The translations under genes and the position numbers were made by a program. From positions 47,608 to 111,607 of the forward strand of contig JANLSU010000070.1 of the NCBI GenBank assembly GCA_031362565.1: a DNA stretch of 64,000 nt, in the 5' to 3' direction. The number at the start of each line of letters is the position of its first letter. Within the stretch, counting starts at the first letter, position 1. The notes beneath the pieces were generated by a model. That model searched no databases and was not told the DNA's origin. It saw only the letters and a list, made by a program, of their open reading frames with translations. Positions 16,274 through 43,840 of this stretch are shown piece by piece. Source of the stretch: a bacterium (GTDB lineage Bacteria; Krumholzibacteriota; Krumholzibacteriia; G020349025).

Positions 16274-16321
16274 CTACCGGTACTGTGTCTTGAGCCCGCT
16301 CCAGCTCAGGTCACGGATGGC
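16274..16321 (-). other. shared C-terminal motif copy 1: AIRDLSWSGLKTQYR*
   Basis: Aligns without gaps to tails at 37653-37700 and 43793-43840. Confidence 0.8.
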
Positions 16322-17587
16322 GGTCGAGGTAAAAGGGGATTCGAAGGCCCCGACGTCCGGCCCTCGTCCAACCACACCCCGTGGATCGGCGCCGAGCGGC
16401 GGGCTCCACTGTGAGTTGGGGCTCGGGCCCGCAGCCGGATCGGCCGCGTCGATGCATGGTGAGCCGGAAGCCAGGCGGTAGTCGCCGGCCGTCGGGTTCT
16501 GGAACTTCGGTGAACTGCCTTGCAGGCTGTTGACCAGACCGGGCACGACGCGGCCATTGCCGAGCCAATTATTGCGCCCTTCCAAACTCCCCGTTCCCGA
16601 GAACACCGTCGCGCCGCCCGCGAGCACGTTGTTGTCGAGGATGTTGCGCGCCGCGATGCTCGAAACGAGGACGTTGCGAGTCGGCTGGCCGACGAGCGTG
16701 TTGTAGGCCATGCGCAGCGTTCCAGCGCGGCCGTCTTCGAAACGCACGAAGTGGGTTTGCTGGGCCGAGGTGGCGCTCTTGATGATCACATTGCCGAGCA
16801 ACAGCGTCTCACCTTGATCGCCGGATCCATCGCCCGCCAGGCTCACCTCGTAGCCTTCGATCGCCCCATTCTCGATACGGTTGTATTGCAGCCGCAGGTT
16901 GTGGGTGCGGTCCTTGTAGCAGGTCCCGTATTGCGAGTCGTGGATCCAGTTGTGCTGGATGACGAAGTCGCTGCCACCGCTCATGTAGAAATCGTGCGCC
17001 GGGCCTTGCAGCCCGCCGTTGTGGTGCACGTTGCAGAATTGGACGGTGACCCGCGTCGCGCCGGACGCCGACATGAAGCCGTTCCAGCAGTCGGTGACTT
17101 CACATTCTTGTACGACGACGTCGGCGCAACCCACCAGGAAGAAACCGCGCGCGTTGGTCTGCGCGCCGCGCATGCCGCTGACGGTGAAATTTTCGAAGAC
17201 CCACCACGCGTTGCCCTGCTCCACGTCCCACAAGGCTTTCGAGTTGGTGAGTTGGGCGCCGCTGACGATCGTCGCGCCGATCCCGGCGCCACGGACGACG
17301 ATGGGCCGGCCGACTGCACCGCTGCCCAACGGCTTCAGCATGGCGGTGGGTGCGAAAGTGCCGGCGTCCAACACGATGGAGTCGCCAGGACCATACGTAT
17401 GGCCGTTGATTGCGGCATCGATCGTCGGGTAAGTGCGGCCCGGACCGACCCGCACGAGAGCGGCCTGCACGGCATGGGGTGTAGCAAGTGCGGCGACGAT
17501 GAAGCAACTCGCCCACAGGCCCGCGCGGCGTGTGGCGCCATCGACACGCATTCTGAAAAACCGGCTCCGAATTGGCTGGATCTGCAT
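16274..17587 (-). CDS. secreted right-handed beta-helix (pectin lyase-like) protein with W-K-Y tail
   Basis: VGPGRTYPTI, parallel beta-helix repeats, DYRLASGSPCIDA, PDVGAFE. Confidence 0.8.
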   Translation of the reverse strand: MQIQPIRSRFFRMRVDGATRRAGLWASCFIVAALATPHAVQAALVRVGPGRTYPTIDAAINGHTYGPGDSIVLDAGTFAPTAMLKPLGSGAVGRPIVVRGAGIGATIVSGAQLTNSKALWDVEQGNAWWVFENFTVSGMRGAQTNARGFFLVGCADVVVQECEVTDCWNGFMSASGATRVTVQFCNVHHNGGLQGPAHDFYMSGGSDFVIQHNWIHDSQYGTCYKDRTHNLRLQYNRIENGAIEGYEVSLAGDGSGDQGETLLLGNVIIKSATSAQQTHFVRFEDGRAGTLRMAYNTLVGQPTRNVLVSSIAARNILDNNVLAGGATVFSGTGSLEGRNNWLGNGRVVPGLVNSLQGSSPKFQNPTAGDYRLASGSPCIDAADPAAGPSPNSQWSPPLGADPRGVVGRGPDVGAFESPFTSTAIRDLSWSGLKTQYR

Positions 17588-17662
17588 GGGTTCCGCCTCC
17601 CGTCCCATCGCGTCCGAACGCCCCCGGGCGTTCAAGTGCCGAGCGGCACCATCGCACGGACA

Positions 17663-17678
17663 AGCAATCTCCGGACCC
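17663..17678 (-). promoter_or_regulatory. candidate sigma-54 promoter for 16274..17587
   Basis: Minus strand gGGTCCGgagaTTGCT, GG-N10-GC. Confidence 0.4.
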
Positions 17679-17779
17679 GCCGCGCTCCCCCGCCCGATGT
17701 CCCGACGAGCCCACACCCGCGGCCGCACCCCAGCGCTCGCCCTTGCGGAGTGCAGTTCCGTCGTTGCGGAGCGCGCGAC

Positions 17780-18973
17780 TCAGCCGCGCGACGTGCCGCG
17801 CGCTACGGCGCGGGCGCGCTCGCGTGCCCGGCGGGCTTGGATCGGGTGGCCGAGGCGCTCGTGCAGCTGCGCCAGCGTCGCTTCGACATCCGCCGAACGC
17901 AGGCCGGTGGCGCGTACCGATTGCAGAAGTTGCACTGCTTCCCCGTCCCGGCCGGTGGCCGCGAACACGTTGCCGAGGGCGAGTTGTGCGAGCACGTATC
18001 CAGGGTGCGCCGCGAGCGCCGCGCCGAGTTCGGCGATGGCTTGATCGAATCGCTCGTCGGCCGTGTAGAGAAGCCCGAGTTCGTAGCGCACGTCGGCGTA
18101 GCCCGGCGCGAGGCGCGAGGCGGCCTCGAACTGTTCGATGGCATTGGCGACTTGGCCACGCGCCGCGAAGAGAAATCCGAGTGCGATGCGCGCCTCGACT
18201 CTTTCCCCGTCGACCCGCACGGCGCGGCCGAGCGCCACCAATGCGGCGTGCTCTTCGCCACGCGATTCGTACTGCGTGCCGAGCGCGACCCAGTACGCGC
18301 CGAGATCGAGCGACAGCGACGCGCCCCATGCGAGCGCCCGGCGCGCCCCCACCTCATCGCCGCCGGCCAGAGCCAGATCTGCTGCGACACGTCCGACCGC
18401 ATCGACGTAGGGATTCCCGTCATACGCCGCCGCCCAGGCTTGCATCGATGCCTCATCTTGCACACCGTCACGCAGGATTCCGGCCGCGTGCAGCAGCGCC
18501 GGGAAGTCGCCGTCGAGTGCGCCGATGCGCCGCAATTGCGCGGACACCGCCGCCTGGTCGGCACTCTGCACGCAAACCCAGAGCCGGTTGAGTTCACGCC
18601 ATGCGACCGGCACCGGCAACGTGTCGCACGCATCAGGCGACAAGCCGGTGCCGCCAAGGCGGGCCCGGCGCACGAAGTCAATTTGGGCGCGGGCGGCATC
18701 CGGCAGCGACTGAGCGACCGCCACGGCCAAGCCCGTGCCGGAAGCGCCTTCGAACTTCGTATGCAGCCACGCGAGATTGAAGCGTGCCGTGGCGTATTGC
18801 GGATTCAAGGCCAGCGCCTGTTCGAAATCACTACGTGCACCATGTGCGTCGCCGTGATGTGCCCGCACGAGGCCGCGCAGGTTGCGCAAGTCAGCGTATG
18901 CCGGACAGGCGGTGACTCGTGCATCCAAGTGCAGCAACAACGCCTGCAAGTCACCGAAGGGGCGGGGGCTCAT
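17780..18973 (-). CDS. tetratricopeptide repeat protein
   Basis: YADLRNLRGL...ALALNPQYATARFNLA; PGYADVRYELGLLY; ATGA overlap with upstream gene. Confidence 0.8.
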   Translation of the reverse strand: MSPRPFGDLQALLLHLDARVTACPAYADLRNLRGLVRAHHGDAHGARSDFEQALALNPQYATARFNLAWLHTKFEGASGTGLAVAVAQSLPDAARAQIDFVRRARLGGTGLSPDACDTLPVPVAWRELNRLWVCVQSADQAAVSAQLRRIGALDGDFPALLHAAGILRDGVQDEASMQAWAAAYDGNPYVDAVGRVAADLALAGGDEVGARRALAWGASLSLDLGAYWVALGTQYESRGEEHAALVALGRAVRVDGERVEARIALGFLFAARGQVANAIEQFEAASRLAPGYADVRYELGLLYTADERFDQAIAELGAALAAHPGYVLAQLALGNVFAATGRDGEAVQLLQSVRATGLRSADVEATLAQLHERLGHPIQARRARERARAVARGTSRG

Positions 18974-19401
18974 GACTCCATCCCAATCTTCTCGTCGTCG
19001 TCCGGTTTTTCGGCGGTCACGTCGACCCGCTCGGCCGCAGCAGTCGGCAGGGCATACACCCGGTTGCTGCCGGTGTCCATGCCGAGGGCCGCGCCGTTCG
19101 CAGCGCGCCACTTGCCACCGCGTTTCGCGATGTTGTCGAATTTGAAGATGACGTCGCGGACATCGCGCAAGCGACGCACGTCCCGCTCCAAGTGCCGAGC
19201 GAGCAACAGTAAGCGCTCGATGGCGCCACCTTCGACGGACGCATCGAGACGGCGGCGGGGGTCCTCCATCGTCGTCTCGAAGTGTCCGAGGATGTAGATG
19301 ACGCCGTTCGTAGTGCCGATCTGCAGGCGCGACACATCCACCCAGCGGCTCACGAGGTAGCGCCGGACTTCAGCGTTGATTCTGTAGTCTTGCGCCGACA
19401 T
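18970..19401 (-). CDS. hypothetical protein, BON-domain-like, no signal peptide
   Basis: DYRINAEVRRYL...LQIGTTNGVIYILG...VRDVIF resembles the BON pattern; GGAGG RBS. Confidence 0.55.
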   Translation of the reverse strand: MSAQDYRINAEVRRYLVSRWVDVSRLQIGTTNGVIYILGHFETTMEDPRRRLDASVEGGAIERLLLLARHLERDVRRLRDVRDVIFKFDNIAKRGGKWRAANGAALGMDTGSNRVYALPTAAAERVDVTAEKPDDDEKIGMES

Positions 19402-19477
19402 GCGCCTCCACGCGAGCGCCCGTGGGACGCCGCTCGGGAGTCATGCGCAAGAACTACGCCGTGGAGGCAGGCGCCGC

Positions 19478-19882
19478 CTATTCCGGACGGTAGGTGGCGC
19501 AGCAGGCGGGTGTTTCCCAAAAATCGACGGCGACGACCGGCAGATCCGCGGCGCGGGCCTGGTCGTACACGAGCCGCGCCAAATTCTCGGCGGTGGGATT
19601 GCAGTCCAGAACAACGACGGGCTCACCGAGCGCCCGCAGCGTGGCCAGCGCCGGATCGTTTTCGTGCAGGATCATCCGGTGGTCCCACGCCTCATCCAGC
19701 CACCGGCCGAGCCGGTCCCGGAGTTCGAGAAAGTCGACGACCATGCCTTGGGCATCGAGGTCCGGCGCCTCGAGGTGCAGCACGACGCGCGCATTGTGGC
19801 CGTGCAACTGCGCGCACTTGCCCACATAGTCGATCAAACGGTGCCCGTAGCAGAATCCGAGCTCGCGTGCGATCCGGTACAT
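19478..19882 (-). CDS. queD: 6-carboxytetrahydropterin synthase (PTPS-I/QueD type)
   Basis: CYGHRL, C-x3-HGHN, GMVVDF, WDHRM, NPTAENLA, WETP. Confidence 0.85.
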   Translation of the reverse strand: MYRIARELGFCYGHRLIDYVGKCAQLHGHNARVVLHLEAPDLDAQGMVVDFLELRDRLGRWLDEAWDHRMILHENDPALATLRALGEPVVVLDCNPTAENLARLVYDQARAADLPVVAVDFWETPACCATYRPE

Positions 19883-20134
19883 GCCGCCTCCTCGAGCCGA
19901 CAGTGTAGCAGGGGCACGCGGCCTCCAGGGCGGCACGCGCGCCCGTTGGGCGGAGCATTTTCCGGCGTGTGGAAAAAAGGCCCGCGCCCGGCACACCTCG
20001 GTGCGGCGGCCACGGTCGAGGCAAGGCAGGGATTCGCGGCCGGCGTTTTTTCTGGCCGACCCCCTTGGGAATTCGCACCCCCGTCAGGTATGCTCCCACT
20101 CGTTGCCTTCAGCCCAATCCGGACGCGGAGAAGC

Positions 20135-21613
20135 ATGTCCGAGTCTTCATTGCCACCGCCCGACGAAGCGGTTCCGAACGACCCAGCAGCGAGCGAGACG
20201 CACGCGGAGCCGGCGCCGTCGGTGCATGCGGCCAAGCCTGCCGATCCCGCCCCGAGCGCCGCCATTGCCTTGGACGATGGCGCCACCGCGACCGCCGAAG
20301 CCGCTCCCATCGAGGAACCGTTCGTCCAGGAACTCGAAGTGCGCGCCGCGCCGGAGCCGCTGCCTGGCGTGCTCGCCGCCGGGCAGAAGGTGCGCGGCAA
20401 AATCTTGTCGGTGGGCGAGGAACACGCCATCGTCAGCTTGAGCGGCCGCCCGGATGCCATTCTCGCGACGCGTGAATTCCGCACCGCCGACGGAACGCTG
20501 TTGCTCCGCGTCGACGACTCGGTCGGAGCCGTGGTACAGACCGCCGACGTGCCCATCGTGCTGACGCTCGACAAGCGGCGCGCGATCCTGAATGCGGCGC
20601 GTTTGCGCATCGCCCACGAAGAGAAGAAACCGGTGACCGGTGCCGTGCGGGCCCTGAACAAGGGCGGTTACGAAGTGCGGGTGGCCGGAGTGCGTTGTTT
20701 CTGTCCGCTGTCGCAGATGGACTCGGGACTCGGCGCCGACCCGCAGAGCCACGCCAACCAAACCTATGCGTTCCGCATCTTGCGTTGGGAGAACGGCGGC
20801 CGCAGCATCATTTTATCGCGGCGCGCCATCCTCAAGGAAGAAGCGGCCGTGAAATCGACCGAGACGCGCAAGAAACTCGAAGTCGGCGCGGAATTCGACG
20901 GCGTCGTGACCCGCGTGCAGCCGTTCGGTGCATTCGTCGATATCGGCGGGCTGGAAGGACTGTTGCATGTGTCGCGCATGGGCCGCGGCCATGTGACCGA
21001 TCCGGCGGCGATCGTCGCGCCGGGCCAGCCGGTTCGCGTCAAGGTCACCAAGATCGACGACCCGGGCACACGCAAGGAACGCATCGGGCTCGCGGCCACC
21101 GATCTCGGGCCCGATCCGTGGACCGCGCTGCCGGAGACCCTGCGCGAGAACAGCGTCTTGCGCGGCCGCGTCATGCGCCTCACTGAATTCGGTGCCTTCG
21201 TCAATCTGGTGCCGGGTATCGACGGACTCGTGCATGTCTCCGAACTCGAGCGCCGCACCGAGAGCGAAGGTCCGCCGCTCGAGCCGGGACAGGAAATCGA
21301 AATCCGAGTCACGCGGGTCGATCCGGAGAAACGGCGTGTGTCGTTGTCGCTGCGGCTGGAACCGCCGCCGCCGCGCGCCGCGATGCGCGACCGCGACGGC
21401 GACGTCGCCCACGAAGTGCGGGCGCCCCGCCCGCCGCGCGACGCCGGCCGTCCGCGCCAGGACCGGGATCGAGACCGCGATCGGGATCGAGATCGTGATC
21501 GGAACGCACGGCCAAACCGCGAGACCGCGCCCTTTGCTGACGGCGGATCGCTGACGCACAACATGGCCGACCAACTCGGCGCGCTCAAGGCCAAGCTCCG
21601 ACTGCCCCAGTGA
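20135..21613 (+). CDS. ribosomal protein S1-like protein with about four S1 domains
   Basis: NKGGYEV..CFCPLSQ; FGAFVDIGGLEGLLHVS; FGAFVNLVPGIDGLVHVSEL; RRVSLSLR. Confidence 0.85.
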   Translation: MSESSLPPPDEAVPNDPAASETHAEPAPSVHAAKPADPAPSAAIALDDGATATAEAAPIEEPFVQELEVRAAPEPLPGVLAAGQKVRGKILSVGEEHAIVSLSGRPDAILATREFRTADGTLLLRVDDSVGAVVQTADVPIVLTLDKRRAILNAARLRIAHEEKKPVTGAVRALNKGGYEVRVAGVRCFCPLSQMDSGLGADPQSHANQTYAFRILRWENGGRSIILSRRAILKEEAAVKSTETRKKLEVGAEFDGVVTRVQPFGAFVDIGGLEGLLHVSRMGRGHVTDPAAIVAPGQPVRVKVTKIDDPGTRKERIGLAATDLGPDPWTALPETLRENSVLRGRVMRLTEFGAFVNLVPGIDGLVHVSELERRTESEGPPLEPGQEIEIRVTRVDPEKRRVSLSLRLEPPPPRAAMRDRDGDVAHEVRAPRPPRDAGRPRQDRDRDRDRDRDRDRNARPNRETAPFADGGSLTHNMADQLGALKAKLRLPQ

Positions 21614-21680
21614 CCCGCGGCGACCGCACCGCAATCTGCTACATTTTGCCCTTCGACGCCGCAGCCGTCCGGAGGTTCCG

Positions 21681-22646: not shown

Positions 22647-22659
22647 GAAGGCGCCGCGC

Positions 22660-29038: not shown

Positions 29039-29043
29039 TTCGG

Positions 29044-30668: not shown

Positions 30669-30736
30669 GTCCCCAGACTACACCCGGCCCCCGGGGGCGG
30701 CGCAAATGTTTCCTGCAGTCGCCGCGGCGCGAGCCG

Positions 30737-30752
30737 CGGCACCGCGCTTGCA
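30737..30752 (+). promoter_or_regulatory. candidate sigma-54 promoter for the iol operon
   Basis: cGGCACcgcgcTTGCA, near-consensus -24/-12. Confidence 0.55.
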
Positions 30753-30936
30753 GTGTCACCGGACAGGGCGAAAGCGATGCGGGACGCCCGGGCTGGGCGT
30801 GCCGGTGCCGACTCCCCGCGACCGGTCCGCCTGAGTTTTCGCCCGTGGCCGGTCCGGAATCGGCCATGCCGTCCGGCGGCGCGGCGGCACGGATCGAAGC
30901 GCCCCCGCCCCTGGAATGCTGCCTGGAGGAATCGCG

Positions 30937-31947
30937 GTGCCTGAGGTGTTGGGACTGGGTGTGATCGGGCTGGGCCGCATCGGGCGCTTGCACGCCGAGA
31001 ATGCGGCACGCCTGGCGGAAGCCCGCCTCGTCGCCCTCGCCGACCCGTGCGTCGAGCGCGCCCACGAGGCGGCAGCGGCCTGCGGCGCGGGCCGCGTGTT
31101 CGACGACCCCACCGCACTCCTCGCCGACCCCGGCGTCCACGCCGTACTCATCTGCTCGTCGACCGATACGCATGCCGGGTTCCTGGAGCAAGCCGCCGCG
31201 GCCGGCAAGCACATCTTCTGCGAAAAACCCCTGGATCTCGATCCCGAACGGATTCGGAGCGCACTCGCGGCGGTCGAACGGGCCGGCGTGCTGCTGCAAG
31301 TCGGCTTCAACCGCCGCTTCGACCCGGGCTTCCGGCGCATCGCCGCCGGCGTCCAACGCGGCGAGGTCGGGCGCCCCGAGTTCGTTCGCATCACGAGCCG
31401 CGACCCTGCCCCGCCACCACTCGATTACGTGCGCGTCTCGGGTGGGATCTTTCTCGACATGACGATTCACGATTTCGACCTGGCGCGCTATCTCATGGCC
31501 GATGAAGTCGTCGAAGTGCAGGCCATGGGTGCAGCGCTCGTCGATCCCGCCATTGGCGCCGCCGGCGATGTCGACACCGCGGCCGTGCTCTTGCGCTTTG
31601 CGGGCGGCGCGCTCGGCTGCATCGACAACTCGCGCCGCGCGGTCTACGGCTACGACCAGCGCGCCGAAGTCCTCGGATCGGCAGGCTGCTTGAGCGCCGC
31701 CAACGTGACCCCGGACCGTGTCAGCCGCTGGGATGTAAACGGCCAAACCGCCGCCAAACCCTTGCACTTCTTCTTGGAGCGCTACGGCGCGGCCTATGTC
31801 GACGAGCTACAGGCCTTCGTCGATTGCGTGCGCGGCCGGCGGCCGCCGCCCGTCAGCGGCCACGATGGATTGCAAGCGACACGCATCGCGCTCGCGGCGC
31901 GGCGCTCGCTTGCCGAACGGCGCCCCGTCGCAGTCGAGGTCGGCTGA
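30937..31947 (+). CDS. iolG: myo-inositol 2-dehydrogenase
   Basis: GLGRIG, ICSSTDTH, CEKP, GFNRRFD, SRDP, DMTIHDFD, YGYDQRAEV. Confidence 0.9.
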   Translation: MPEVLGLGVIGLGRIGRLHAENAARLAEARLVALADPCVERAHEAAAACGAGRVFDDPTALLADPGVHAVLICSSTDTHAGFLEQAAAAGKHIFCEKPLDLDPERIRSALAAVERAGVLLQVGFNRRFDPGFRRIAAGVQRGEVGRPEFVRITSRDPAPPPLDYVRVSGGIFLDMTIHDFDLARYLMADEVVEVQAMGAALVDPAIGAAGDVDTAAVLLRFAGGALGCIDNSRRAVYGYDQRAEVLGSAGCLSAANVTPDRVSRWDVNGQTAAKPLHFFLERYGAAYVDELQAFVDCVRGRRPPPVSGHDGLQATRIALAARRSLAERRPVAVEVG

Positions 31948-32774
31948 TGCTATCGCCCGTCGTGAATGCGTTTCGCGCCGGCTTCGACCGCGGCCGCACG
32001 GTCATCGTTCGTGAAAGCGATGCGGGGCCGCTCGCACCGGGGCTCGATTTCGATGTGGTCGTGCAACACCGCGGTGACGCGACCGATGCAACGGACGCCA
32101 AGGAATCGGCTTGGGTGCTCCTTGCCGGGCGCGCCGCAGTGACATTCGATGCCGCATCGCACGTTGTCGAGCGCGATTCCCTCTTCGATGCCGCACCCGC
32201 GGTCCTGCATCTCGCGGCCGGCTCGGCTGCCAAGCTGGTGGCGCACTCCGATCGCGTCGAATGGGCGGTCGTGCGGGCCACGAATGCGCGCCGCTTTGCG
32301 CCCCGCCTGTTCACGGCCGCCGATGTGACGGCCGAGCGCCGCGGCGCGGGGCTCGCGCAGGGTGCCTGCGTCCGCACCGTGCGCCTCGTCTTCGATCGCA
32401 CCACAAGGCCCGAATCGGCAATCGTCCTCGGCGAAGTCGTGGGCGATGCCGGACGCTGGTCGAGCTATCCGCCGCATCATCATGCGCAGCCGGAGCTGTA
32501 TCACTACCGGTTTTCGGCACCGCAGGGCTGGGGACACGCCGAATTGGGCGACGCCGTTTTCAGAGTGCAAAGCGGTGACACGCTCTGCATTCCACCGCAC
32601 GCGACGCATGCGCAGGTTGCCGCCGCGGGTTATGCGATGTGGTACCTCTGGGCGGTGCGCCACGTGCCGGGTGCCCCGTACGAGGGCTTCACCTACGACC
32701 CCCAGCACACCTGGTTGCTCGATCCGGCCTCGCAAGGCTGGGCGCCCGGCGTGGACGCTGGAGGCCGCTCATGA
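31947..32774 (+). CDS. iolB: 5-deoxy-glucuronate isomerase
   Basis: LGEVV...GRWSSYPPHHHAQPELYHYRF; YAMWYLW; operon context. Confidence 0.85.
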   Translation: MLSPVVNAFRAGFDRGRTVIVRESDAGPLAPGLDFDVVVQHRGDATDATDAKESAWVLLAGRAAVTFDAASHVVERDSLFDAAPAVLHLAAGSAAKLVAHSDRVEWAVVRATNARRFAPRLFTAADVTAERRGAGLAQGACVRTVRLVFDRTTRPESAIVLGEVVGDAGRWSSYPPHHHAQPELYHYRFSAPQGWGHAELGDAVFRVQSGDTLCIPPHATHAQVAAAGYAMWYLWAVRHVPGAPYEGFTYDPQHTWLLDPASQGWAPGVDAGGRS

Positions 32775-34627
32775 GCACCGTGCGCCTGACCGTCGCCCAA
32801 GCGCTCGTCGATTTTCTCGCCCAGCAGTACATGGCGCGCGACGGCGCCGAGCATCGCATCATCCACGGCTTCGCAGGCATCTTTGGACATGGCAACGTGA
32901 CCGGCATCGGCCAAGCGATCGAGGAGCGCTCGAGCCTGCCCTTCTATCAGCCCAAGAACGAGCAAGCGATGGTGCACATGGCGGTGGCGTTCGCCAAGGC
33001 ACGCGCTCGGCTCGGCACGCTCGCCTGCACGACATCGGTCGGACCCGGGGCGACGAATCTCGTCACTGGTGCCGCGGGCGCGACCATCAACCGTCTGCCG
33101 GTTCTACTCTTGCCGGGCGACGTGTTCGCGAGCCGCCTCCCCGATCCGGTGTTGCAGCAGCTCGAGCATCCGCAGTCGCTCGACACGAGCGTCAACGATT
33201 GCCTGCGGCCGGTGTCGCGCCGCTTCGATCGCATCATGCGGCCCGAGCAATTGCTGCGGGCGCTGCCGGAAGCGATGCGCGTCCTGGCATCGCCGGTCGA
33301 AACGGGTGCCGTGACGATCTGCTTGCCCGAGGATGTGCAAACCGAAGCCTACGACTGGCCGGTCGAGTTCTTCGCGAAAAGGGTGTATGCAGTGCTGCGG
33401 CCGCGCCCGGACACCAACGAACTCCAAACCGCAGTTGCGCTCCTGAAAAACTCGCGGCGGCCGTTTCTCATTGCCGGTGGCGGCGTGCACTACGCCGGCG
33501 CCACCAACGCGCTTGCCGCGTTCGTGGAACGCACCGGGATTCCCGCCGGCGTGACGCAAGCCGGCAAGGGTGCATTGCTCGATGCGCACCCGTTCTGTCT
33601 CGGAGCCGTCGGCGTGACCGGCACCGCGGCCGCGAATCGTATCGCGGCGGAGGCCGATGTCGTCGTCGCGATCGGCACCCGCTTGGCGGATTTCACGACC
33701 GCCTCGAAGACGCTCTTCCAGCATCCGAACGTGCGCTTCGTGAATATCCAAATCGATCCCTATGACGCGCACAAACAGGGCGCGTTGCCGCTTCTGGCCG
33801 ACGCCCGGGCGGGGCTCGAGGATCTGGGCGCGGCACTCGGCGGCTATTCGACGTCGAGCCCGTACCGGCGCGAAATCACCGAAGCACAATCGGCGTGGGC
33901 CCTCATGCGGGACGAGATCGTGCATCGCACCCACGGCGACACCGGTGCACTGCACCAAGCGGCGGTGCTCGCACTCCTGAACGAGCATGTCGGCCCGCGC
34001 GCCACGGTCGTGCATGCCGCCGGCGGCCTGCCGGGAGACCTGCACAAGCTCTGGCGCTCCGAGTCGGCAGCGCAGTTGCACTCCGAGTACGGTTACTCGT
34101 GCATGGGCTATGAGATCGCGGGAGCGCTCGGCGTCAAACTGGCGGATCCCGAGCGCGCCGTGTATGCATTCGTGGGTGACGGCAGTTACCTCATGCTGCA
34201 CACGGAAATCGTCACCGCGCTGCAAGAAGGACTCAAGATCACCATCGTCCTCGTCGACAACGGCGGCTACCAGTGCATTCATGGGTTGCAGCGCAGCACC
34301 GGTGGGCGGAGCTTCGGCAATGAGTTCCGCACCCGCACCGGTGGCCGCCTCGCCGGATCCCCGGTGCCGGTGGACTACGCCGCGAATGCCCGCAGCTTGG
34401 GGGCCGCGGCGTGGCACGCCCGAACCGCGGCCGAACTGCGCGCAGCACTCGCGGCAGCCGGCGCCGAGCCACGGACCTGTCTCATTCATGTGCCGGTCGA
34501 GCCCCGCCCGGTGCCGTCCTTCGCCTGGTGGGACGTCCCATCCGCCGAGGTCTCCGACATCCCGTCCGTACGAGACGCACGCCGGCGTTACGACGCGGCG
34601 CGGGTCGCGCAACGGTTCTACTACTGA
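32771..34627 (+). CDS. iolD: 3D-(3,5/4)-trihydroxycyclohexane-1,2-dione acylhydrolase
   Basis: RLTVAQALV, GIFGHGNV, NEQAMVH, EYGYSCMGYEIAG, GDGSYLML, WWDVP. Confidence 0.95.
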   Translation: MSTVRLTVAQALVDFLAQQYMARDGAEHRIIHGFAGIFGHGNVTGIGQAIEERSSLPFYQPKNEQAMVHMAVAFAKARARLGTLACTTSVGPGATNLVTGAAGATINRLPVLLLPGDVFASRLPDPVLQQLEHPQSLDTSVNDCLRPVSRRFDRIMRPEQLLRALPEAMRVLASPVETGAVTICLPEDVQTEAYDWPVEFFAKRVYAVLRPRPDTNELQTAVALLKNSRRPFLIAGGGVHYAGATNALAAFVERTGIPAGVTQAGKGALLDAHPFCLGAVGVTGTAAANRIAAEADVVVAIGTRLADFTTASKTLFQHPNVRFVNIQIDPYDAHKQGALPLLADARAGLEDLGAALGGYSTSSPYRREITEAQSAWALMRDEIVHRTHGDTGALHQAAVLALLNEHVGPRATVVHAAGGLPGDLHKLWRSESAAQLHSEYGYSCMGYEIAGALGVKLADPERAVYAFVGDGSYLMLHTEIVTALQEGLKITIVLVDNGGYQCIHGLQRSTGGRSFGNEFRTRTGGRLAGSPVPVDYAANARSLGAAAWHARTAAELRAALAAAGAEPRTCLIHVPVEPRPVPSFAWWDVPSAEVSDIPSVRDARRRYDAARVAQRFYY

Positions 34628-34641
34628 ACGGAGTTGACGCG

Positions 34642-35565
34642 ATGACTGCATTCGAGCGCCAAGCCCCCTTCCTGAGCGATTGGGCGCCACGGGTCGGCAT
34701 CAACCCGATCGTGTGGACCAATGACGACTTCCACGACTTAGGGAACGCCACGTCGCTCGATCGTTGCTTGTCGGAAACGCGTGCCGCCGGCTTCGCGGGC
34801 ACCGAACTCGGGCGCAAGTTTCCACGCCAGCCGGAAGCGCTCCGCAGCGCACTCGCGGCGCACGGCCTGGTGCTCGTCTCGGGATGGCATAGCCTCAACG
34901 TGTTGGAGCAGGACATCGAGACCGTGTGGCAGGGCCTTCGAACCCATCTCGAACTGCTCTCGGCACTCGGAACCGACGTTGCGATCGTCGCCGAATGCAC
35001 CCGCCGCAGCTACGCCGATCCGCAGGCACCGCTGCGCTTCGTACGCAATGGCGACGCGCTCGCGTCCGCCGAGTGGGATCGTTTGACCACGGGTCTCGAC
35101 CACTTGGCGGCCCGCGCCGCCGAACACGGTATGCGCTTGGCCTACCATCACCACATGGGTACGGTCGTGCAAACAGCCGGCGAGGTCGACCGGCTGATGG
35201 CGGAAACTCGCGATCTCGGTTTGCTCGTCGATACCGGGCATCTGGCTTTCGCCGGCGCCGATCCGCTCGCCATGCTCGAACGTCACGCGCCGCGCGTCGT
35301 TCACGTCCACCTCAAGAATGTGCGGCCGGACGTGGTCCAGAGCGCCCGCCAAAGCGCCTGGAGTTTTTCGCAGGCGGTCCGCGCCGGTGTGTTCACGGTG
35401 CCGGGTGACGGCGGCATCGATTTCGCGCCCATCCTCGCCCGCCTGCGCCAAGCGCGGTACCGGGGCTGGCTGGTGGTCGAAGCCGAACAGGATCCGAGCC
35501 TCGCGCCACCCTTCCAGTACGCGGCGCGGGCCCGCGACTACGTTCGCAAAGTGGCGGGTGTGTGA
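34642..35565 (+). CDS. iolE: myo-inosose-2 dehydratase
   Basis: INPIVWTNDD, GTELG, SGW, YHHHMGT, DTGH, FTVPGDG, VEAEQDP. Confidence 0.93.
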   Translation: MTAFERQAPFLSDWAPRVGINPIVWTNDDFHDLGNATSLDRCLSETRAAGFAGTELGRKFPRQPEALRSALAAHGLVLVSGWHSLNVLEQDIETVWQGLRTHLELLSALGTDVAIVAECTRRSYADPQAPLRFVRNGDALASAEWDRLTTGLDHLAARAAEHGMRLAYHHHMGTVVQTAGEVDRLMAETRDLGLLVDTGHLAFAGADPLAMLERHAPRVVHVHLKNVRPDVVQSARQSAWSFSQAVRAGVFTVPGDGGIDFAPILARLRQARYRGWLVVEAEQDPSLAPPFQYAARARDYVRKVAGV

Positions 35566-36644
35566 TGGCGAAGCAGCCGCACGCGGTGACGTCCAAGATG
35601 CAAGCGACGCTGGCATTGGGCGCGTCGTTCTGGAACGACTCGTGTGATTTGCGCGAATTGCGCCACGCCGTCGACGCGGGGGCACGCGGCGCGACATCGA
35701 ACCCGGTCATTGTCGCCGAAGCGGTGAGCGCCGATCCCGCGACCTGGCTGCCGGTTGTCGACGCCTTGCTCCGCGACCACCCCACTGGGCGCGAAGACGA
35801 AATCGCTTGGCGGCTGGTCGGGGCAATGGGGCGTGAGGCAGCAGCGATTCTGGCGCCCGTGCACGCCCGCACCGGCGGCGAGCACGGCTGGTTGTGCGTG
35901 CAAACGGATCCACGGCTCTTCCGCGACGCCGAACGCATGTGCGCGCATGGACGCGAAATCGCCGCGCTGGCAGCCAACGTCGCGGTCAAGGTGCCGGCCA
36001 CGGCCGCCGGCCTGCAGGCCATCGAGACGCTGACCAGCGAAGGCATCCGCATCAATGCCACGGTCAGTTTCAGTGTGTCACAAGCCCTGGCATGCGCGGC
36101 GGCCGTCGAACGTGGGCTCGCCGCGGCCGAACGCACCGGGCGCGGCGACGCCGCAACCATCCAGCCCTGGGTGACACTCATGGTGGGACGTCTCGATGAT
36201 CACTTGCGGCGTGTGATGGAGCGCGAACGTGTCACCGTAGAGCCGGGATTCCTCGACTGGGCGGGCATCGCCGTCTTCAAAAAGGCCGCCGCACTGTTCC
36301 GCGCCCGCGGCTATCGCAGCACGCTTCTCGCCGCCGCGTACCGGCACTGCATGCATTGGACGGAACTCGTCGGTCCGGGTGTCGTCCTGTCGATGCCGTA
36401 CCGATTCTGGACCCAGTTCGATGCCTCGGACTTGGTGCCGCGCGTCGCACTCGCGGATCCGGTCGAGCCGCGCGTCGTCGCGACGCTTCTGGCGCTGTTC
36501 CCCGATTTCGCCCGCGCCATGGACGAAGAGGGTTTGTCGCCGGCCGAATTCGAGACCTTCGGCCCCTCGATCCACACTCTGCAGCAATTTCACGCCAGCT
36601 TCGACCGCCTGGTCGGGATCGTCCGCGGCCGCCTGTTGCGCTAG
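35565..36644 (+). CDS. transaldolase-family class I aldolase (atypical active site)
   Basis: WNDS, GATSNP, Schiff-base VKVPAT, INATVSFS, MVGRLDD. Confidence 0.85.
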   Translation: MAKQPHAVTSKMQATLALGASFWNDSCDLRELRHAVDAGARGATSNPVIVAEAVSADPATWLPVVDALLRDHPTGREDEIAWRLVGAMGREAAAILAPVHARTGGEHGWLCVQTDPRLFRDAERMCAHGREIAALAANVAVKVPATAAGLQAIETLTSEGIRINATVSFSVSQALACAAAVERGLAAAERTGRGDAATIQPWVTLMVGRLDDHLRRVMERERVTVEPGFLDWAGIAVFKKAAALFRARGYRSTLLAAAYRHCMHWTELVGPGVVLSMPYRFWTQFDASDLVPRVALADPVEPRVVATLLALFPDFARAMDEEGLSPAEFETFGPSIHTLQQFHASFDRLVGIVRGRLLR

Positions 36645-36848
36645 CACCGATTCATCTCGCAGCGTGATCCCGAATCGTCCTTCAGTGCCGATCCTGGGAC
36701 GCTTTGGGTCCTTTGCCGCTTTCCCGCTCGGATGTATGTCGAATGCGTCACTCGCGATTCATGCTGGCGTCATGCTCTTGGCGCAACAATGACCACAACG
36801 AAAGACGCCCCACAGTGCGCCAACATCTATTTGATGGGGAGAGACATC

Positions 36849-37700
36849 ATGAATCGTACGCTAGCGATCGCATTATCCGTAGTCGTCACCAGCACATTCG
36901 GTGCATCTCAATCGCCGCGCGGGATCAGCCGCTGGTTGCCCGCAATGCCGCCGGCCGCCGCCGATGTGCTGGTGGGAATGAACGACGTGGAACATCCACA
37001 CGACGGCACTGCGAATGAACTCGTGCAGGTCGACCTCACGACCGGCGTGGCGACAAACCTGCACGTTTTCGCGGCGGCACTGAACGACATGGAGGCGCTC
37101 TGCTACGACGCGCGCAACGCCGTACTGTGGGCCACCAACGGCGGTGTCCTGGTACGAATCAACACCACGACCTTCGACGCGGTGACCATCGGCGACACCG
37201 GTTTGGGTGACATCGACGGTTTATCGATTCAGCCAGGCACCGGCACGCTCTTCGGGATCACGTACGGCGGCAACGATTTGTTCACTATCGACAAACAGAC
37301 CGGCGCCGTGACGATGATCAACGGTCACATCGAGGAGGGCTCGCGCCCCGAGGATCTCGCCTTCGATTCGACCGGCCGGCTGTACGCCCTCACGTCCAGT
37401 AGCCTGGTCGAGTTGCGGCCGAGCGACGGAGTCCGGATTTCGAAGGTCGCGCTATCGGGTGCCTCGAGCCTCGAGTCGCTCGTGTGGTGGAACGAGGGTG
37501 GCACTTTCCTGACCGCCGGGGATCGCGGGACAACCAAGGACCTCGCGCGCCTCGACCGGACAACCGGCGTCGCGACTTTCGTCGGCGCCGTGCACTCCGG
37601 CAAAGTCGACATCGAGGCGCTCGCCTTCTTGCCGCAAACCCCGCCGGTCCTCGCGGTCCAAGAACGGACGTGGGGAGCCACCAAGGCGTTGTACCAGTGA
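36849..37700 (+). CDS. secreted beta-propeller-like protein with W-K-Y tail
   Basis: Signal peptide; ~40-aa repeats (MEALCYD, IDGLSIQ, PEDLAFD, LESLVWW, IEALAFL). Confidence 0.75.
   Translation: MNRTLAIALSVVVTSTFGASQSPRGISRWLPAMPPAAADVLVGMNDVEHPHDGTANELVQVDLTTGVATNLHVFAAALNDMEALCYDARNAVLWATNGGVLVRINTTTFDAVTIGDTGLGDIDGLSIQPGTGTLFGITYGGNDLFTIDKQTGAVTMINGHIEEGSRPEDLAFDSTGRLYALTSSSLVELRPSDGVRISKVALSGASSLESLVWWNEGGTFLTAGDRGTTKDLARLDRTTGVATFVGAVHSGKVDIEALAFLPQTPPVLAVQERTWGATKALYQ
37653..37700 (+). other. shared C-terminal motif copy 2: AVQERTWGATKALYQ*
   Basis: Gap-free alignment with the other two tails. Confidence 0.8.
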
Positions 37701-37772
37701 TGCAGCGGGCGGGAGCGGCCCGCATCCGGTCCCGACGATGCATCACAACTTTGCAGATGAAAAGGCCTCCGT

Positions 37773-39374: not shown

Positions 39375-39396
39375 TCAAGGGCGTGGGCGCTAGGGT

Positions 39397-41316
39397 TCAC
39401 GCCTTGACGGTGCGCGGGCGCGCGGCGAGCGCCAGGAACAAGCAAACGACCGCAATGAGTGCCAGCGTAACGAGCTTGCCGGCGGTACCGGATACGAGCG
39501 GGTCGTGGGTTTTGGGAATCGCGCCGAAGCCCACGAGGGCGGCCACGAGGACGCCCGCCAGTCCCTCGCCGGCGACCAAGCCCGAGGCCGCCAACACGCC
39601 GGCGTCGCCGCCGGACTGCGCGGCGCGCTCGCCGCGCGAACGTTCGACGCGGGCCCGCACACAGCCGCCGACGAAAATCGGCAGCATCGAAGAGAGCGGC
39701 AAATACACCCCGATCGCGAACGCCAGGCCCGAAACCCCGCAGAGCATCGCGGCGCCCGAAACGCCGGCACCGCTCAGCACGAGCCCCCAAGGGAGATCGC
39801 CCGAGAGCACACCCTCGATGATGGTCTTCATGAGGGTGGCTTGCGGCGCCGCCAGTTCCGCCGAACCAAACTCGTAGGTGCGGCCGAGCAGCAACACCGT
39901 GCCGGCCACCGCCCAGCAGGCGAACGAAGCGCCGATGAGCTGCCCGAGCTGCTGTTTGGCCGGCGTCGCGCCGACCAAGAAGCCGGTCTTGAGATCCTGT
40001 GAAATGTCGCCGGCCTTGGAAGCGGCGATGGCGACAATGGTGCCGACGGTGAGCACCGCGGCGCGCGCATTCGCATCCCGCCATCCGAGGGCCGCGAACA
40101 CCGCCGCGACACCGAGCAGCGTCACGAGGGTGATTCCCGAAGTCGGTTGCGAGGAAACGCCGACGATTCCGACGATACGCGCCGCAACCGCCACGAAAAG
40201 AATACCGAACAGGCCGACGCCAGCCGCACACACGAGCCGCGCCCCGAGCCCCATGTGACCGGCGAAGACACCGGGCACGAGCGCCGAGACCACAATCACC
40301 GCGACGACGGCGCCAATGACGAAGCGGCCGGAAAGATCGCGATCGGCATCCGGATTGAGCACCGCCCCCGCCGGGGACTCGCCGCCGCCCGCATCGGGCC
40401 CGGCCGTTCGCCGTTCGGCTCGCAAGCCACGCGCCACGGCGCGAAAGGCGCCGAACATCGTCGGGAAATTGCGCACCACGGTCACAATGCCGGCGGTCGC
40501 AACCGCGCCCGCGCCCACAAAACGCACGTAGCGCGACCAAATCTGCCCCGACGTCATGTCGCCGACGAGTTTCTGTGTTTCGGGCAAAAGCGGTGTCGTG
40601 AGACTGACGCCGATGAATGCAATGAGCGGCGTCAGTGCAAACGCTGAAACGACAGATCCCGCGACAATGACCGCCGACTGGCGGTAGCCGAGGATGTAGC
40701 CGATCGCCAGCAATGCCGGTGCGAGTTCGATCGCGATTTCGGCTTTCGGCAAGAACGGCACTGCACCGGCGACGATGCCGGGCGAGAGAAAGAGCACGGC
40801 GATCAAGACCTTCACGCCGGCGCCGACGGCCATGCCGCGGAAAATCCAGACGCCGCCCGAGGCATCGGTGGTCGTGGCGCGCAACACTTCGGCGCACGCC
40901 GTGCCCTCGGGGTACGGCAGCTCCTTCGCGCCTTGGACGATCAACAAACGCCGCAACGGGATCATCGCCGCGAGCCCGAGCACGCCGCCCAGGAACGCCA
41001 GCACGACGACCTGCCAATAGGGCGGCGCCATGCCCCACAGGAAAAGCGCCGGAATGGTGAAGATGGTGCCGGAGGTGAGCGACGTCGAGGCCGAACCGAT
41101 CGTCTGCGCCAAGTTGGCTTCGAGAATCGTACCGCGCAGCCGGAAGACCTTGAAGACCGCGACCGCCATGACGGCCGCCGGAATCGACGCCGACACCGTC
41201 ATGCCGACGCGCAGGCCCAAGTAGGCATTTGCGGCCCCGAACACCAGCCCCAAGACAATGCCGGTGACGACCGCCTTGAAGGTGAACTCGGCAATGCCCT
41301 CGCGCGCGAACGCCAC
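39397..41316 (-). CDS. OPT-family oligopeptide transporter
   Basis: ANAYLGLRVGMTVSASIPAAV, LPYPEGTACA, SQDLKTGFLVGATP, APQATLM. Confidence 0.95.
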   Translation of the reverse strand: MAFAREGIAEFTFKAVVTGIVLGLVFGAANAYLGLRVGMTVSASIPAAVMAVAVFKVFRLRGTILEANLAQTIGSASTSLTSGTIFTIPALFLWGMAPPYWQVVVLAFLGGVLGLAAMIPLRRLLIVQGAKELPYPEGTACAEVLRATTTDASGGVWIFRGMAVGAGVKVLIAVLFLSPGIVAGAVPFLPKAEIAIELAPALLAIGYILGYRQSAVIVAGSVVSAFALTPLIAFIGVSLTTPLLPETQKLVGDMTSGQIWSRYVRFVGAGAVATAGIVTVVRNFPTMFGAFRAVARGLRAERRTAGPDAGGGESPAGAVLNPDADRDLSGRFVIGAVVAVIVVSALVPGVFAGHMGLGARLVCAAGVGLFGILFVAVAARIVGIVGVSSQPTSGITLVTLLGVAAVFAALGWRDANARAAVLTVGTIVAIAASKAGDISQDLKTGFLVGATPAKQQLGQLIGASFACWAVAGTVLLLGRTYEFGSAELAAPQATLMKTIIEGVLSGDLPWGLVLSGAGVSGAAMLCGVSGLAFAIGVYLPLSSMLPIFVGGCVRARVERSRGERAAQSGGDAGVLAASGLVAGEGLAGVLVAALVGFGAIPKTHDPLVSGTAGKLVTLALIAVVCLFLALAARPRTVKA

Positions 41317-41493
41317 GCAACAACCCCCTTTTGGAAGGCCGCACTGTAGCACTTCCGGCGCCCGGCGCGGTGGAGCGGTACCCGCCCGCTCGGCACAACT
41401 CTCCGGCTTGCGCGCACGCCTTCGACGGAGCAGAATTCCGGCACCTGTCCGCTGCGCATCAGGCCCCCGGCCTTCTGTGGAGGGCGATGTCGA

Positions 41494-41973
41494 ATGCGTC
41501 CGTCCGTACCTCGTTTCGTGTTGGTCCGCCGTCGCGCCGGAGCGGCGCTCATCGTCGGATGGGCACTCCTATTCGCCAATTGCGGCGATCACGCCACGGC
41601 GCCCCCGGCGCCGACGAACTTCCAGATCGTGAGTGGATTGGAAAACGGCTGGGCCGGGTCCGGCCACGAAATCCGCGTCGGACCTGTGGTCGCAGAGCGC
41701 GACTCATGGGCTGGGCGTGGCGCGCCGCATACGACCGCAACCATCCGGATCGACACCGCAACCCGGACCGCGCTCGTGGCTGCCGTCGACGAAAGCGCGC
41801 TCGGCGCATTGCCGGAGGTCATCGGCTGTCCCGGTTGCACCGACGGTCCGATGGAATGGATCGAGGTTCAACGCGGGGCGTTCCACAGGCGGGTGACTTT
41901 CAGTCCGTGGGATGATCTGGGCGCAGGCAATGCGGCATTGCTGCAACAAGTGCGGACGTTGCGCGCCGATTGA
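41494..41973 (+). CDS. hypothetical lipoprotein with CxxC motif
   Basis: Lipobox-like LFANC; IGCPGCTDGPMEWIEV. Confidence 0.6.
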   Translation: MRPSVPRFVLVRRRAGAALIVGWALLFANCGDHATAPPAPTNFQIVSGLENGWAGSGHEIRVGPVVAERDSWAGRGAPHTTATIRIDTATRTALVAAVDESALGALPEVIGCPGCTDGPMEWIEVQRGAFHRRVTFSPWDDLGAGNAALLQQVRTLRAD

Positions 41974-42143
41974 CCGCTCGTGGCAATCGCGGCATCAGCG
42001 ATCGTGCGCCGGGAGAACGACCACACGCTGCACGCCGCGCTCCGTGCCCGCATCGCCGACCACTGCCGAGTTCGCAGTCACGTTTGTCGAGAAGTACGCG
42101 GCGTCGAAGTCAATGGCAGAAGTTCGGGAGCATCCTCCGAAAC

Positions 42144-42545
42144 GTGGGCTGGCGAATTCCAAAGGAACACGGCGCTTGGGCGATGCTCCTCGTGCCCTTG
42201 GTGCTGGGCATCGCGGTAGGTGGCACGTGGCAATCGCGCGTGTTCGTCGTCGCGGCAGCGGCGATCGTCGCATTCACTTCGCGTGAGTCGCTCGCCATCG
42301 CAGTGCGCAAACGCCGGCGCGGCCGAGTTGTCGGGCCGGCGGTTCGAGATTTCGCGTTGCAGGCGGGGGTCGCGCTGGCGTGCGGAGTGTGGCTCGTGGT
42401 TCACGAGCGCCTCGTCGCGCTTGTGCCCATGGTTGCGGCAGGCATTCTTCTGCTGGGAATGCACGCCTTCCAGCTGCAACGGCGCGAGCAGCGCACTGTC
42501 AGTGCAGAAGTGCTCGTGATCCTGAGCCTGACGATGACGACTTGG
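42144..42545 (+). pseudogene. truncated YwiC-like membrane protein
   Basis: IPKEHGAWAMLLVP signature; hydrophobic character ends at ~42540 and the frame runs on antisense to the next gene until 42767. Confidence 0.55.
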
Positions 42546-42553
42546 AGCGGCGA

Positions 42554-43684
42554 TCATTCGTCGGGGAACTGGCCGCGCAATTCATCCGGGACGGGACCAT
42601 GGCCGCACCAACCGACGAAGCCGGCCGGCTTGGCTACCAGCCATTCGGGATGCGCGCCTCGCAGGTACGAGAGGCGCACGATGGGCTGCGGCAAGTCGAT
42701 TTCACGCAGATCGTCGAAACCAACGTCGGGTAGGAACGGCACCTTGAGCCGCAGGTGCGGCATGTAAATGCGCACACCGGTGAGCGCGACTTCCGGCGAC
42801 ACGTCGCCTTCCGGGCCGCAAGGCGATGTCCAGAAGAGAATCGCGCGCGGTTCGTGCACGCCCCACTTGCGGAGCAACAACCCGTTCATGTCGTGCAACA
42901 CGATCGCCTCGTACGGCGCCGGTGGGCCCGCCGCTTGGATGCGGTCCAGTTTGCAGGAATAGTGTTCGGGCATGAGCACTTCGACAACATCGTCGAGGCC
43001 GGTCGGCAGGAGCATGCTCAACATGCGGCGGCGCTGGCCGTCGATTTGAAAGTCGCGAATGCGTACCCGCACGCGCTTCCCGCCCATGGCAACCAGCGTA
43101 TCGAGATCGTGCCGCAGGTCGTACGTCAGGCACAGGTGCCCGAATCCCATCCGCGCCCGGCGCAACCGCGTGATGGGATACAGACCCGGGTCCGAGAAGC
43201 GTGCAAAGGCTCCCGCCAGTGCCGCTTCGTCGGCCTCGCGGACGCACGTCGTGTCGGTCGCGAACGCGGCGACATAGCTGTAGGCATTCCGGGTTGCGAG
43301 CCGCGCCAACAAGTGCGCCGCGTGGCGGGCGGCGCTCGAACCTGGAGTGCCGAAATGAGCGGCGCGATACAACGAGTCCACGCGCGCGAGCTCGCGTTCA
43401 TTGCCGTCGGCGAGCGTCTGGCCGACCGAATCGACGTCACAGGCCCGCAGGCGCACGATGCGCACTTGCGGGCCCAGACGGCACAGTGGACAGGGACGCG
43501 GCGTATCGTCGTCAAACCGTGCGTGCGGAGAAATCGACGCTGGAACCGCATCGATCATGGCGGGTTCGGAACCTGGAGCCCGTGCCAACTCCACGCCCAC
43601 ACTGGCCCCGGCGCGCGACAACAGTGCGCAGAGCGCGAGCGCCGAGGCGCGCCGCCAGCCAGTCTGGATATCGTGAGATCGCAC
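42554..43684 (-). CDS. exported hypothetical protein
   Basis: Long ORF with signal-like N-terminus; no family recognised; start uncertain. Confidence 0.55.
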   Translation of the reverse strand: MRSHDIQTGWRRASALALCALLSRAGASVGVELARAPGSEPAMIDAVPASISPHARFDDDTPRPCPLCRLGPQVRIVRLRACDVDSVGQTLADGNERELARVDSLYRAAHFGTPGSSAARHAAHLLARLATRNAYSYVAAFATDTTCVREADEAALAGAFARFSDPGLYPITRLRRARMGFGHLCLTYDLRHDLDTLVAMGGKRVRVRIRDFQIDGQRRRMLSMLLPTGLDDVVEVLMPEHYSCKLDRIQAAGPPAPYEAIVLHDMNGLLLRKWGVHEPRAILFWTSPCGPEGDVSPEVALTGVRIYMPHLRLKVPFLPDVGFDDLREIDLPQPIVRLSYLRGAHPEWLVAKPAGFVGWCGHGPVPDELRGQFPDE

Positions 43685-43720
43685 CTCGAAAGCAAAGCAA
43701 CGACCGGGCCGAAGCGGCCG

Positions 43721-43759
43721 CCAAAGCAAAGCCCCTTGCCGCCAGGAACGGCAAGGGGC
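43721..43759 (-). terminator. rho-independent terminator after 43793..44524
   Basis: 10-bp stem GCCCCTTGCC/GGCAAGGGGC, 9-nt loop, then TTTGCTTT on minus strand. Confidence 0.65.
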
Positions 43760-43792
43760 CGCGATCGGGAACGGACGCCGCGAAGTCGGCGC

Positions 43793-43840
43793 TCAGCGGT
43801 ACAGGGCCTTGACGCCCGACCACGGCGCGGATTCGACGCC
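43793..43840 (-). other. shared C-terminal motif copy 3: GVESAPWSGVKALYR*
   Basis: Gap-free alignment with the other two tails. Confidence 0.8.

Follow-up and report, generated by a model that had tools for sequence, protein, structure and literature searches.

The question raised by the 64,000-nucleotide stretch of DNA analysed here (the window; contig JANLSU010000070.1, from a genome of the phylum Krumholzibacteriota) is why three unrelated secreted proteins encoded in it should share one short C-terminal tail. A sequence-only reading of the window had interpreted the tail as a short sorting tag on secreted proteins, and this interpretation is supported by the analysis described below. All three tail peptides (Table 1) translated exactly as claimed, with a stop codon at the end. 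Their DNA differed, as had also been claimed: 4-6 of the 15 residues were identical in pairwise comparisons, as were 25-29 of the 48 bases. The observed C-terminal tail was thus confirmed. Judged by eye, all three proteins have signal-like N-termini, the likely starts being at 17551, 36849 and 44524. The claim that their folds differ held for the beta-helix protein (PF13229, E 6e-13) and the DNRLRE protein (NF033679, E 3e-12), but the propeller assignment of the third was backed by sub-threshold repeat matches only (DUF4394, DUF6923).

The window belongs to a 5.4-Mb genome (here G000), in which 58,862 stop-to-stop open reading frames (ORFs) were scanned. The core motif W[SG]..K..[YF] occurred 113 times; 91 of the occurrences were located at most four residues from the stop, and 10 were separated from it by more than 25 residues. 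From the internal rate, 0.43 occurrences were expected in the last five positions, as compared with the 91 observed. The strict pattern of the sequence-only reading found only 18 ORFs. With a position matrix built from 104 regex matches and a threshold of at least 18 bits, 129 tail ORFs were identified, and in all of them W was at most 21 residues from the stop. Variants with I for W and an altered linker (G000:C70:120266-120649, + strand, and C93:34991-35830, - strand) scored below 18 bits, therefore 129 is a floor. The consensus of the tail in this genome, V-[GA]-V-E-x-x-[TS]-W-[SGT]-x-[VI]-K-x-[LM]-[YF]-R (about 16 residues), consists of a linker and a predicted nine-residue amphipathic helix (mean hydrophobic moment 0.54, charge +1.8). 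The lysine was present in 125 of the 129 tails and replaced by R in the remaining 4. A gene model of 4138 genes included 115 of the tail ORFs, so that tail carriers make up about 3% of the genes.

Signal peptides were called by a lax heuristic of our own, which was positive for 93 of the 115 carriers, 179 of 216 proteins with a type IX secretion system (T9SS) C-terminal domain (CTD), as well as 1305 of 3807 other genes (34%). The enrichment suggested as a check was thus found. By eye, about 20 of the 36 tail ORFs without a call showed a signal-like stretch when a different start was assumed; the others looked like fragments or frameshifts. The carriers were small, with a median length of 238 amino acids (aa) compared with 752 aa for CTD proteins and 306 aa for other genes. 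Only 2 of the 115 had a transmembrane (TM) segment in the mature part, in line with the earlier description of a tail without such a segment. The carriers fell into 67 sequence families. When representatives of 40 families (of the 62 with at least 140 aa) were scanned, 15 showed surface-type domains, including NHL, kelch, CHRD, lamin-tail, ice-binding, trypsin and choice-of-anchor N, and 25 gave no match; no cytoplasmic housekeeping family was among the 40. A CTD profile trained on the genome detected T9SS-type C-terminal CTDs in 233 ORFs, none of which was among the 129 tail ORFs, as expected if tail and FlgD-Ig CTD are mutually exclusive. The carriers were spread over many contigs. A dedicated neighbour gene was considered and rejected: the same-strand upstream gene was another tail gene in 10 and a CTD gene in 9 of 110 cases, a survey in which barrels were not looked for.

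The strongest evidence for the role of the tail is that it alternates with known tags on the same domain. The best 120 of 2716 DNRLRE homologues were classified by simple patterns according to their ends: 24 carried the tail (strict pattern, with a few further variants beyond these), 21 PEP-CTERM, 16 a CTD, 5 a dockerin/EF and 3 an IPTL end, leaving 51 other ends. In the CTD-type homologues the domain was followed by a [TVLS]-[GAS]-[VI]-[EDG]-type linker in register with V-G-V-E of the tail. The likeness between the leading part of the tail and the linker of T9SS CTDs, pointed out in the sequence-only reading, was accordingly seen in register on the same domains in G000. In that genome 34 of the 115 carriers shared a domain with a CTD protein. 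A paralogue of the DNRLRE protein (G000:C18:23872-24828, 49% over 197 aa) has a CTD directly after the same domain end, and a paralogue of the protein encoded at 36849..37700 (G000:C76:7798-9162, 62% over 211 aa) has a T9SS-type CTD at its end in place of the tail. From this alternation we take the tail to be a label for sorting or anchoring, and we regard a function as sorting or docking label as very probable.

Further short ends were noted on DNRLRE proteins: an I-F-x-x-G-F-E motif (P0023-P0025, P0042, P0054, P0084), V-P-A-x-S plus a TM segment (P0058, P0064, P0086, P0089) and F-Y-L-P-F (P0090). G000 also contains three exosortase-family matches (G000:C36:17376-18992, C105:9331-9618, C46:4372-4629). 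One of these genes adjoins that of an NHL protein whose tail is of the TM type, a paralogue of the tail-bearing NHL proteins, and G000 thus has three tag types.

The tail did not match any catalogued sorting signal, as the sequence-only reading had supposed. No model in NCBIfam or Pfam and no PDB entry matched it (best PDB E 0.98), and none of 79 tail segments matched TIGR04183/PF18962/PF13860, CHU_C, or the PEP-CTERM, IPTL-CTERM, GlyGly-CTERM and LPxTG models. No description of the tail was found in the literature searched; most subscription journals and all supplements, which may contain motif lists, were outside this search. The tail is a real, uncatalogued, phylum-wide tag that behaves as a C-terminal sorting signal would and lacks the defining features of type A, short and type B CTDs as well as of TM tags.

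Using a tail profile (A1, 79 rows), 5 to at least 65 matches were obtained in each of the 121 genomes of the host phylum, showing that the motif is not confined to the three proteins of the window. A degenerate DNA pattern of the tail was found in 37 of 41 related genomes, and the reversed control in none. A pattern scan of the genome collection gave at least 122 loci; among the matches listed, many were labelled Eisenbacteria, Krumholzibacteria or Latescibacterota. Matches labelled Verrucomicrobia, Planctomycetota and Reyranella were not counted as part of the range; those genomes had no SprA or PorU matches. The idea that genomes with few pattern matches contain a single conserved cargo was also dropped, as 20 such loci encoded mostly unrelated proteins and the profile found at least five tails in each genome. 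T9SS components are encoded in G000: SprA, three PorU and seven PorV-family barrels over the cut-off. GldM and GldN were not found, in searches for which no control genome was positive and which did not include GldK and GldL. SprA was detected in 46 of 49 other tail-bearing genomes. One region (L169, G000:C85:43000-56000, and upstream) is a T9SS locus with two tandem porU genes, a PorV-family barrel and an M6-like CTD protein; further genes there encode an NHL protein, an Omp85 and an unclassified barrel of 1174 aa.

Six tail-bearing lipoproteins of one family led to a candidate reader of the tail, because their only tail-less paralogue, here lipoB, is encoded next to a further lipoprotein, lipoA, outside the window (Table 1). 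The order rsmA, barrel, lipoA, lipoB was found in 15 of 20 larger loci, and the barrel end followed by two lipoproteins in 61 of a total of 98 loci; the 98 include 30 Latescibacterota loci without a barrel match. Neither the lipoproteins nor the barrel (Pfam, NCBIfam, PDB) had a library match above threshold. Look-alike clusters of lipoA were found in Rhodothermota and Ignavibacteriota, phyla with cultured members. The structure models of the two lipoproteins (predicted local distance difference test, pLDDT, 88.9 and 93.8) were NTF2-like: both had the cone-shaped alpha+beta fold with a pocket that characterizes the superfamily, and they matched 3rob_A with Z 15.5 (root mean square deviation 1.9, 123 residues aligned) and Z 14.4 (2.1, 123 aligned). 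In a profile alignment lipoA and lipoB were related with 99.6% probability, lipoB ending at W-x-D ahead of the tail. The two are thus shown, at the level of models and profiles, to be NTF2-fold paralogues encoded side by side.

The lipoA protein itself ends in [TS]-W-[GS]-x-L-[RK]-[GA]-x-[FLY]-R in 145 of 150 representatives (<50% identity), with W in 105. This end resembled the cargo tail in a profile comparison (P 2e-4), and in Zixibacteria it had nearly the cargo form in 8 of 8 loci. In the monomer model of lipoA the tail helix was predicted with a pLDDT of about 92, and 5 of the top 8 covarying pairs (413 sequences) joined tail and body columns. On these grounds the tail helix of lipoA likely plugs the pocket of its own protein. 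The lipoB protein usually stops just before the helix, and 24 of 99 homologues have a fused cargo-type tail. In these tail-fused homologues the C-I-F-S-P start is mostly absent, and the lipobox Cys is often followed by acidic residues, a feature recalling the lipoprotein export signal of Bacteroidota. The six tail-bearing paralogues of G000, four of them in tandem and some with an extra N-terminal domain, are encoded at G000:C63:17134-20505 (L178), C93:37456-38133 and C34:26467-27774. For the 810-aa barrel (L180:2271-4703, G000:C89) look-alike clusters of low recognition value were noted in Bacteroidota, Cloacimonadota and Ignavibacteriota.

Phylogenetic profiling, which had been proposed as a check, showed that the tails track PorU, SprA and the lipoprotein pair. 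With a single query lipoB was found in 77 of the 121 phylum genomes; when 20 of the 44 misses were retested with a profile, 19 were positive. Including these 19, the lipoB family was detected by profile in 64 of 69 tail-bearing genomes. Among 51 Latescibacterota, the lipoA family was present in 32, PorU over the cut-off in the same 32, and tails in 20, all within the 32; the 19 others, without lipoA family and PorU, had no tail. The association between tail and lipoprotein (Fisher P 3e-6) is overstated, the genomes being kin and not independent. In four of the five Latescibacterota loci analysed, the two lipoprotein genes were located just downstream of PorV/PorQ-family barrels. The large barrel was not seen within about 4 kb upstream in any of the five; the rest of those genomes was not searched. 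Also in 4 of the 5 loci (L292-L296), a weak match to RseP (M50 protease) lies between the PorV-family barrels and lipoA. Since all tail-positive Latescibacterota have the pair, and the pair is present without tails in Zixibacteria, it looks necessary but not sufficient for tails and travels with T9SS. The undescribed secretion system envisaged earlier calls for a more precise wording, as the tag tracks genomes that have T9SS parts together with an uncatalogued lipoprotein pair.

We propose that the cargo tail is the terminal helix of lipoA grafted onto other proteins. Small carriers would first be exported by Sec, and their helix would then dock in the open, unplugged NTF2-type pocket of lipoB. 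The latter could recruit small cargo to the outer-membrane parts of T9SS (SprA, PorV-family barrels, PorU) or hold it at the surface, a role equivalent, for small proteins, to that of CTD recognition by PorV for large ones. A link between the tail and the T9SS route is probable; we lean slightly towards the NTF2 lipoprotein of the lipoA/lipoB module as its putative reader; and for the whole, a T9SS-linked docking tag read by lipoB, we see an even chance. A wider scheme is possible but doubtful. According to this, the tail would be a new class of bacterial sorting signal: the self-plugging helix of an outer-membrane lipoprotein was copied onto hundreds of proteins, and the empty-pocket paralogue together with a 600-810-aa barrel would form a receptor-and-pore route in several phyla of the Fibrobacterota-Chlorobiota-Bacteroidota (FCB) group, exporting or anchoring soluble proteins and lipoproteins and perhaps replacing missing motor or shuttle parts of T9SS.

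Several observations weigh against lipoB as the reader of a T9SS-linked tag. The 19 Latescibacterota without tail, lipoA family and PorU may form a single clade and hence represent one loss, and 12 of the 32 pair-positive genomes of this phylum have no tails. In Zixibacteria the pair was present in 17 of 61 genomes and cargo tails in 0 of 61 (E<=0.001), a zero that means no large set rather than none, as the profile misses lipoA's own tail there. Two genomes with PorU, G023 (96% complete, 9 tails) and G167 (27 tails, 2.1 Mb), gave no lipoprotein match with either profile. G143, with 16 tails and one lipoprotein match, had no SprA or PorU match and may be a mixed bin. The lipoA tail has drifted in many members of the phylum (mean core score -5.3 against a background of -9.7, sd 5.4), the covariation was derived from effectively 233 sequences and may reflect ancestry, and lipoB itself ends in a tail-like helix in some genomes, where its pocket may therefore be occupied. 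The leniency of the signal-peptide calls also belongs here.

Could the tail be a minimal T9SS signal instead, read directly by a PorV-family barrel and cut by PorU at the linker, the lipoproteins being cargo or subunits that share the motif? SprA and the PorU and PorV-family genes are at hand, the linker stands in register with that of CTD-bearing homologues and has the form [GAS][VILT] in 100 of 129 tails, which can be compared with the PorU cleavage site X/(GSA)(VLI) given in the available text of PMC4560394, and CTDs of only 40-51 aa work in Prevotella intermedia (available text of PMC11969387). However, the tail lacks the motifs and strands that, according to the same partial text, PorV binds even in short CTDs, and 0 of 129 tails matched a CTD. 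In tails of other genomes the would-be +1 position was most commonly occupied by Pro (59 of 149), unlike the sites in the available text of PMC4560394 and PMC11969387; the CTD linker of G000 most often has D (24 of 100) where the tail has G or A; and all five Zixibacteria tested have SprA and no cargo tails. We consider direct recognition by PorV rather unlikely. It is unlikely, too, that the 600-810-aa barrel, lipoA and lipoB constitute a separate, SprA-independent machine for export or anchoring at the outer membrane with the tail as its dedicated signal. The conserved gene order, the barrel without a library match and the failure to find GldM and GldN (with no positive control) would suit such a machine, but in Latescibacterota the barrel is missing from the roughly 4 kb searched upstream of the pair, PorV/PorQ-family genes are the neighbours in four of the five loci, and the pair matches PorU genome for genome.

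A tail without any protein reader, the helix adhering to the membrane or lipopolysaccharide or the carriers self-associating as a surface coat, would agree with an amphipathic and basic helix. Nine residues are few for such a role, the near invariance of K over R suggests a stereospecific site, and the distribution follows the lipoprotein and PorU genes, all of which makes this explanation very unlikely. The presence of the tail on lipoproteins could also point to a periplasmic retention, chaperone or degradation tag in place of a surface label. Against this stand the alternation with tags known for surface placement and the surface-type domains of the carriers, and the probability left to a periplasmic role is minimal. 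A lysine cross-link to peptidoglycan like that of Braun lipoprotein was dropped as a candidate, the K of the tail being four residues from the end.

The features are collected in Table 1. A weak choice-of-anchor Q segment precedes the tail of the beta-helix protein. The window also encodes representatives of the contrast class, namely two proteins whose CTDs are of the ordinary FlgD-Ig/T9SS type A (1867-2901 and 54747-58184, both - strand), and a 989-aa signal-peptide protein (58958-61927, + strand) with a final Phe as in outer-membrane barrels. The gene run at 30916-36644 (+ strand) we take to resemble inositol catabolism plus transaldolase, and the ORF at 62351-63790 (- strand) presumably resembles an IS1380-type transposase.

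Table 1. Positions of the tails, the tail-bearing proteins and the lipoprotein locus
Feature	Position	Strand	Description
Beta-helix protein, C-terminal tail + stop	16274..16321	-	translation
Tail-bearing exported protein, ~425 aa	16274..17551	-	signal-peptide-like N-terminus, right-handed beta-helix; start inferred
Repeat (probable propeller) protein, C-terminal tail + stop	37653..37700	+	translation
Tail-bearing exported protein, ~283 aa	36849..37700	+	signal-peptide-like N-terminus; start inferred
DNRLRE protein, C-terminal tail + stop	43793..43840	-	translation
Tail-bearing DNRLRE-domain protein, 243 aa	43793..44524	-	signal-peptide-like N-terminus
lipoA/lipoB locus	G000:C89, outside window		rsmA, 810-aa barrel, lipoA, lipoB, secD, secF (secD/secF by sequence)

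To our knowledge, the short sorting tags described so far depend on a membrane anchor, and the signals described for type IX secretion are folded beta domains. A soluble tag of 16 residues, carried by about 3% of the genes of G000 and present throughout a phylum, fits neither the TM-anchored tags nor the folded CTDs. The tail would serve as a signature by which thousands of hypothetical surface proteins could be annotated. The uncatalogued lipoprotein pair, which follows PorU genome for genome in Latescibacterota, may for that reason be a missing T9SS module outside Bacteroidia.

PEP-CTERM, IPTL-CTERM, GlyGly-CTERM and LPxTG signals require a TM helix and a basic end, and sorting enzymes of the membrane cut them. 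Like them, the tail is a short C-terminal tag that alternates on choice-of-anchor domains, but it differs in having no TM segment. The pilotins PulS and OutS bind the S-domain of the secretins PulD and OutD, each having one dedicated client. By analogy, an outer-membrane lipoprotein would here also capture a short C-terminal amphipathic helix; unlike a pilotin, it would have more than 100 clients, and lipoA and lipoB are NTF2-like in their models. No pilotin was among the top fold matches of the two lipoproteins, all of which were NTF2-like, a listing that does not exclude pilotins.

The closest parallels are found within T9SS. With type A CTDs (TIGR04183, PF18962; in G000 of the FlgD_ig-like form PF13860) the tail shares its C-terminal position on signal-peptide proteins, the absence of a TM segment, the site and a similar linker, and the genomes in which it occurs. 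Type A CTDs are beta domains of 40-100 residues read by the PorV barrel, whereas the tail has 16 residues, a predicted helix, no CTD motifs and small cargo, and its candidate reader is a lipoprotein pocket. In Prevotella intermedia the functional short CTDs (40-51 aa) retain, according to the available text of PMC11969387, three strands as well as motifs B, D (GxY) and E; the tail, with about 16 aa, has none of these motifs. Type A CTDs use PorV and type B CTDs, which serve as secretion and targeting signals, use PorP/SprF shuttles (available text of PMC12618676). Type B CTDs, as described in that text, have about 100 residues, five motifs and a shuttle gene that is usually linked, whereas no CHU_C match was found for the tail, whose carriers are spread over many contigs. 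In the terms of the same partial source, the tail nevertheless resembles type B CTDs in being a second class of signal with its own, here putative, partner beside the PorV route.

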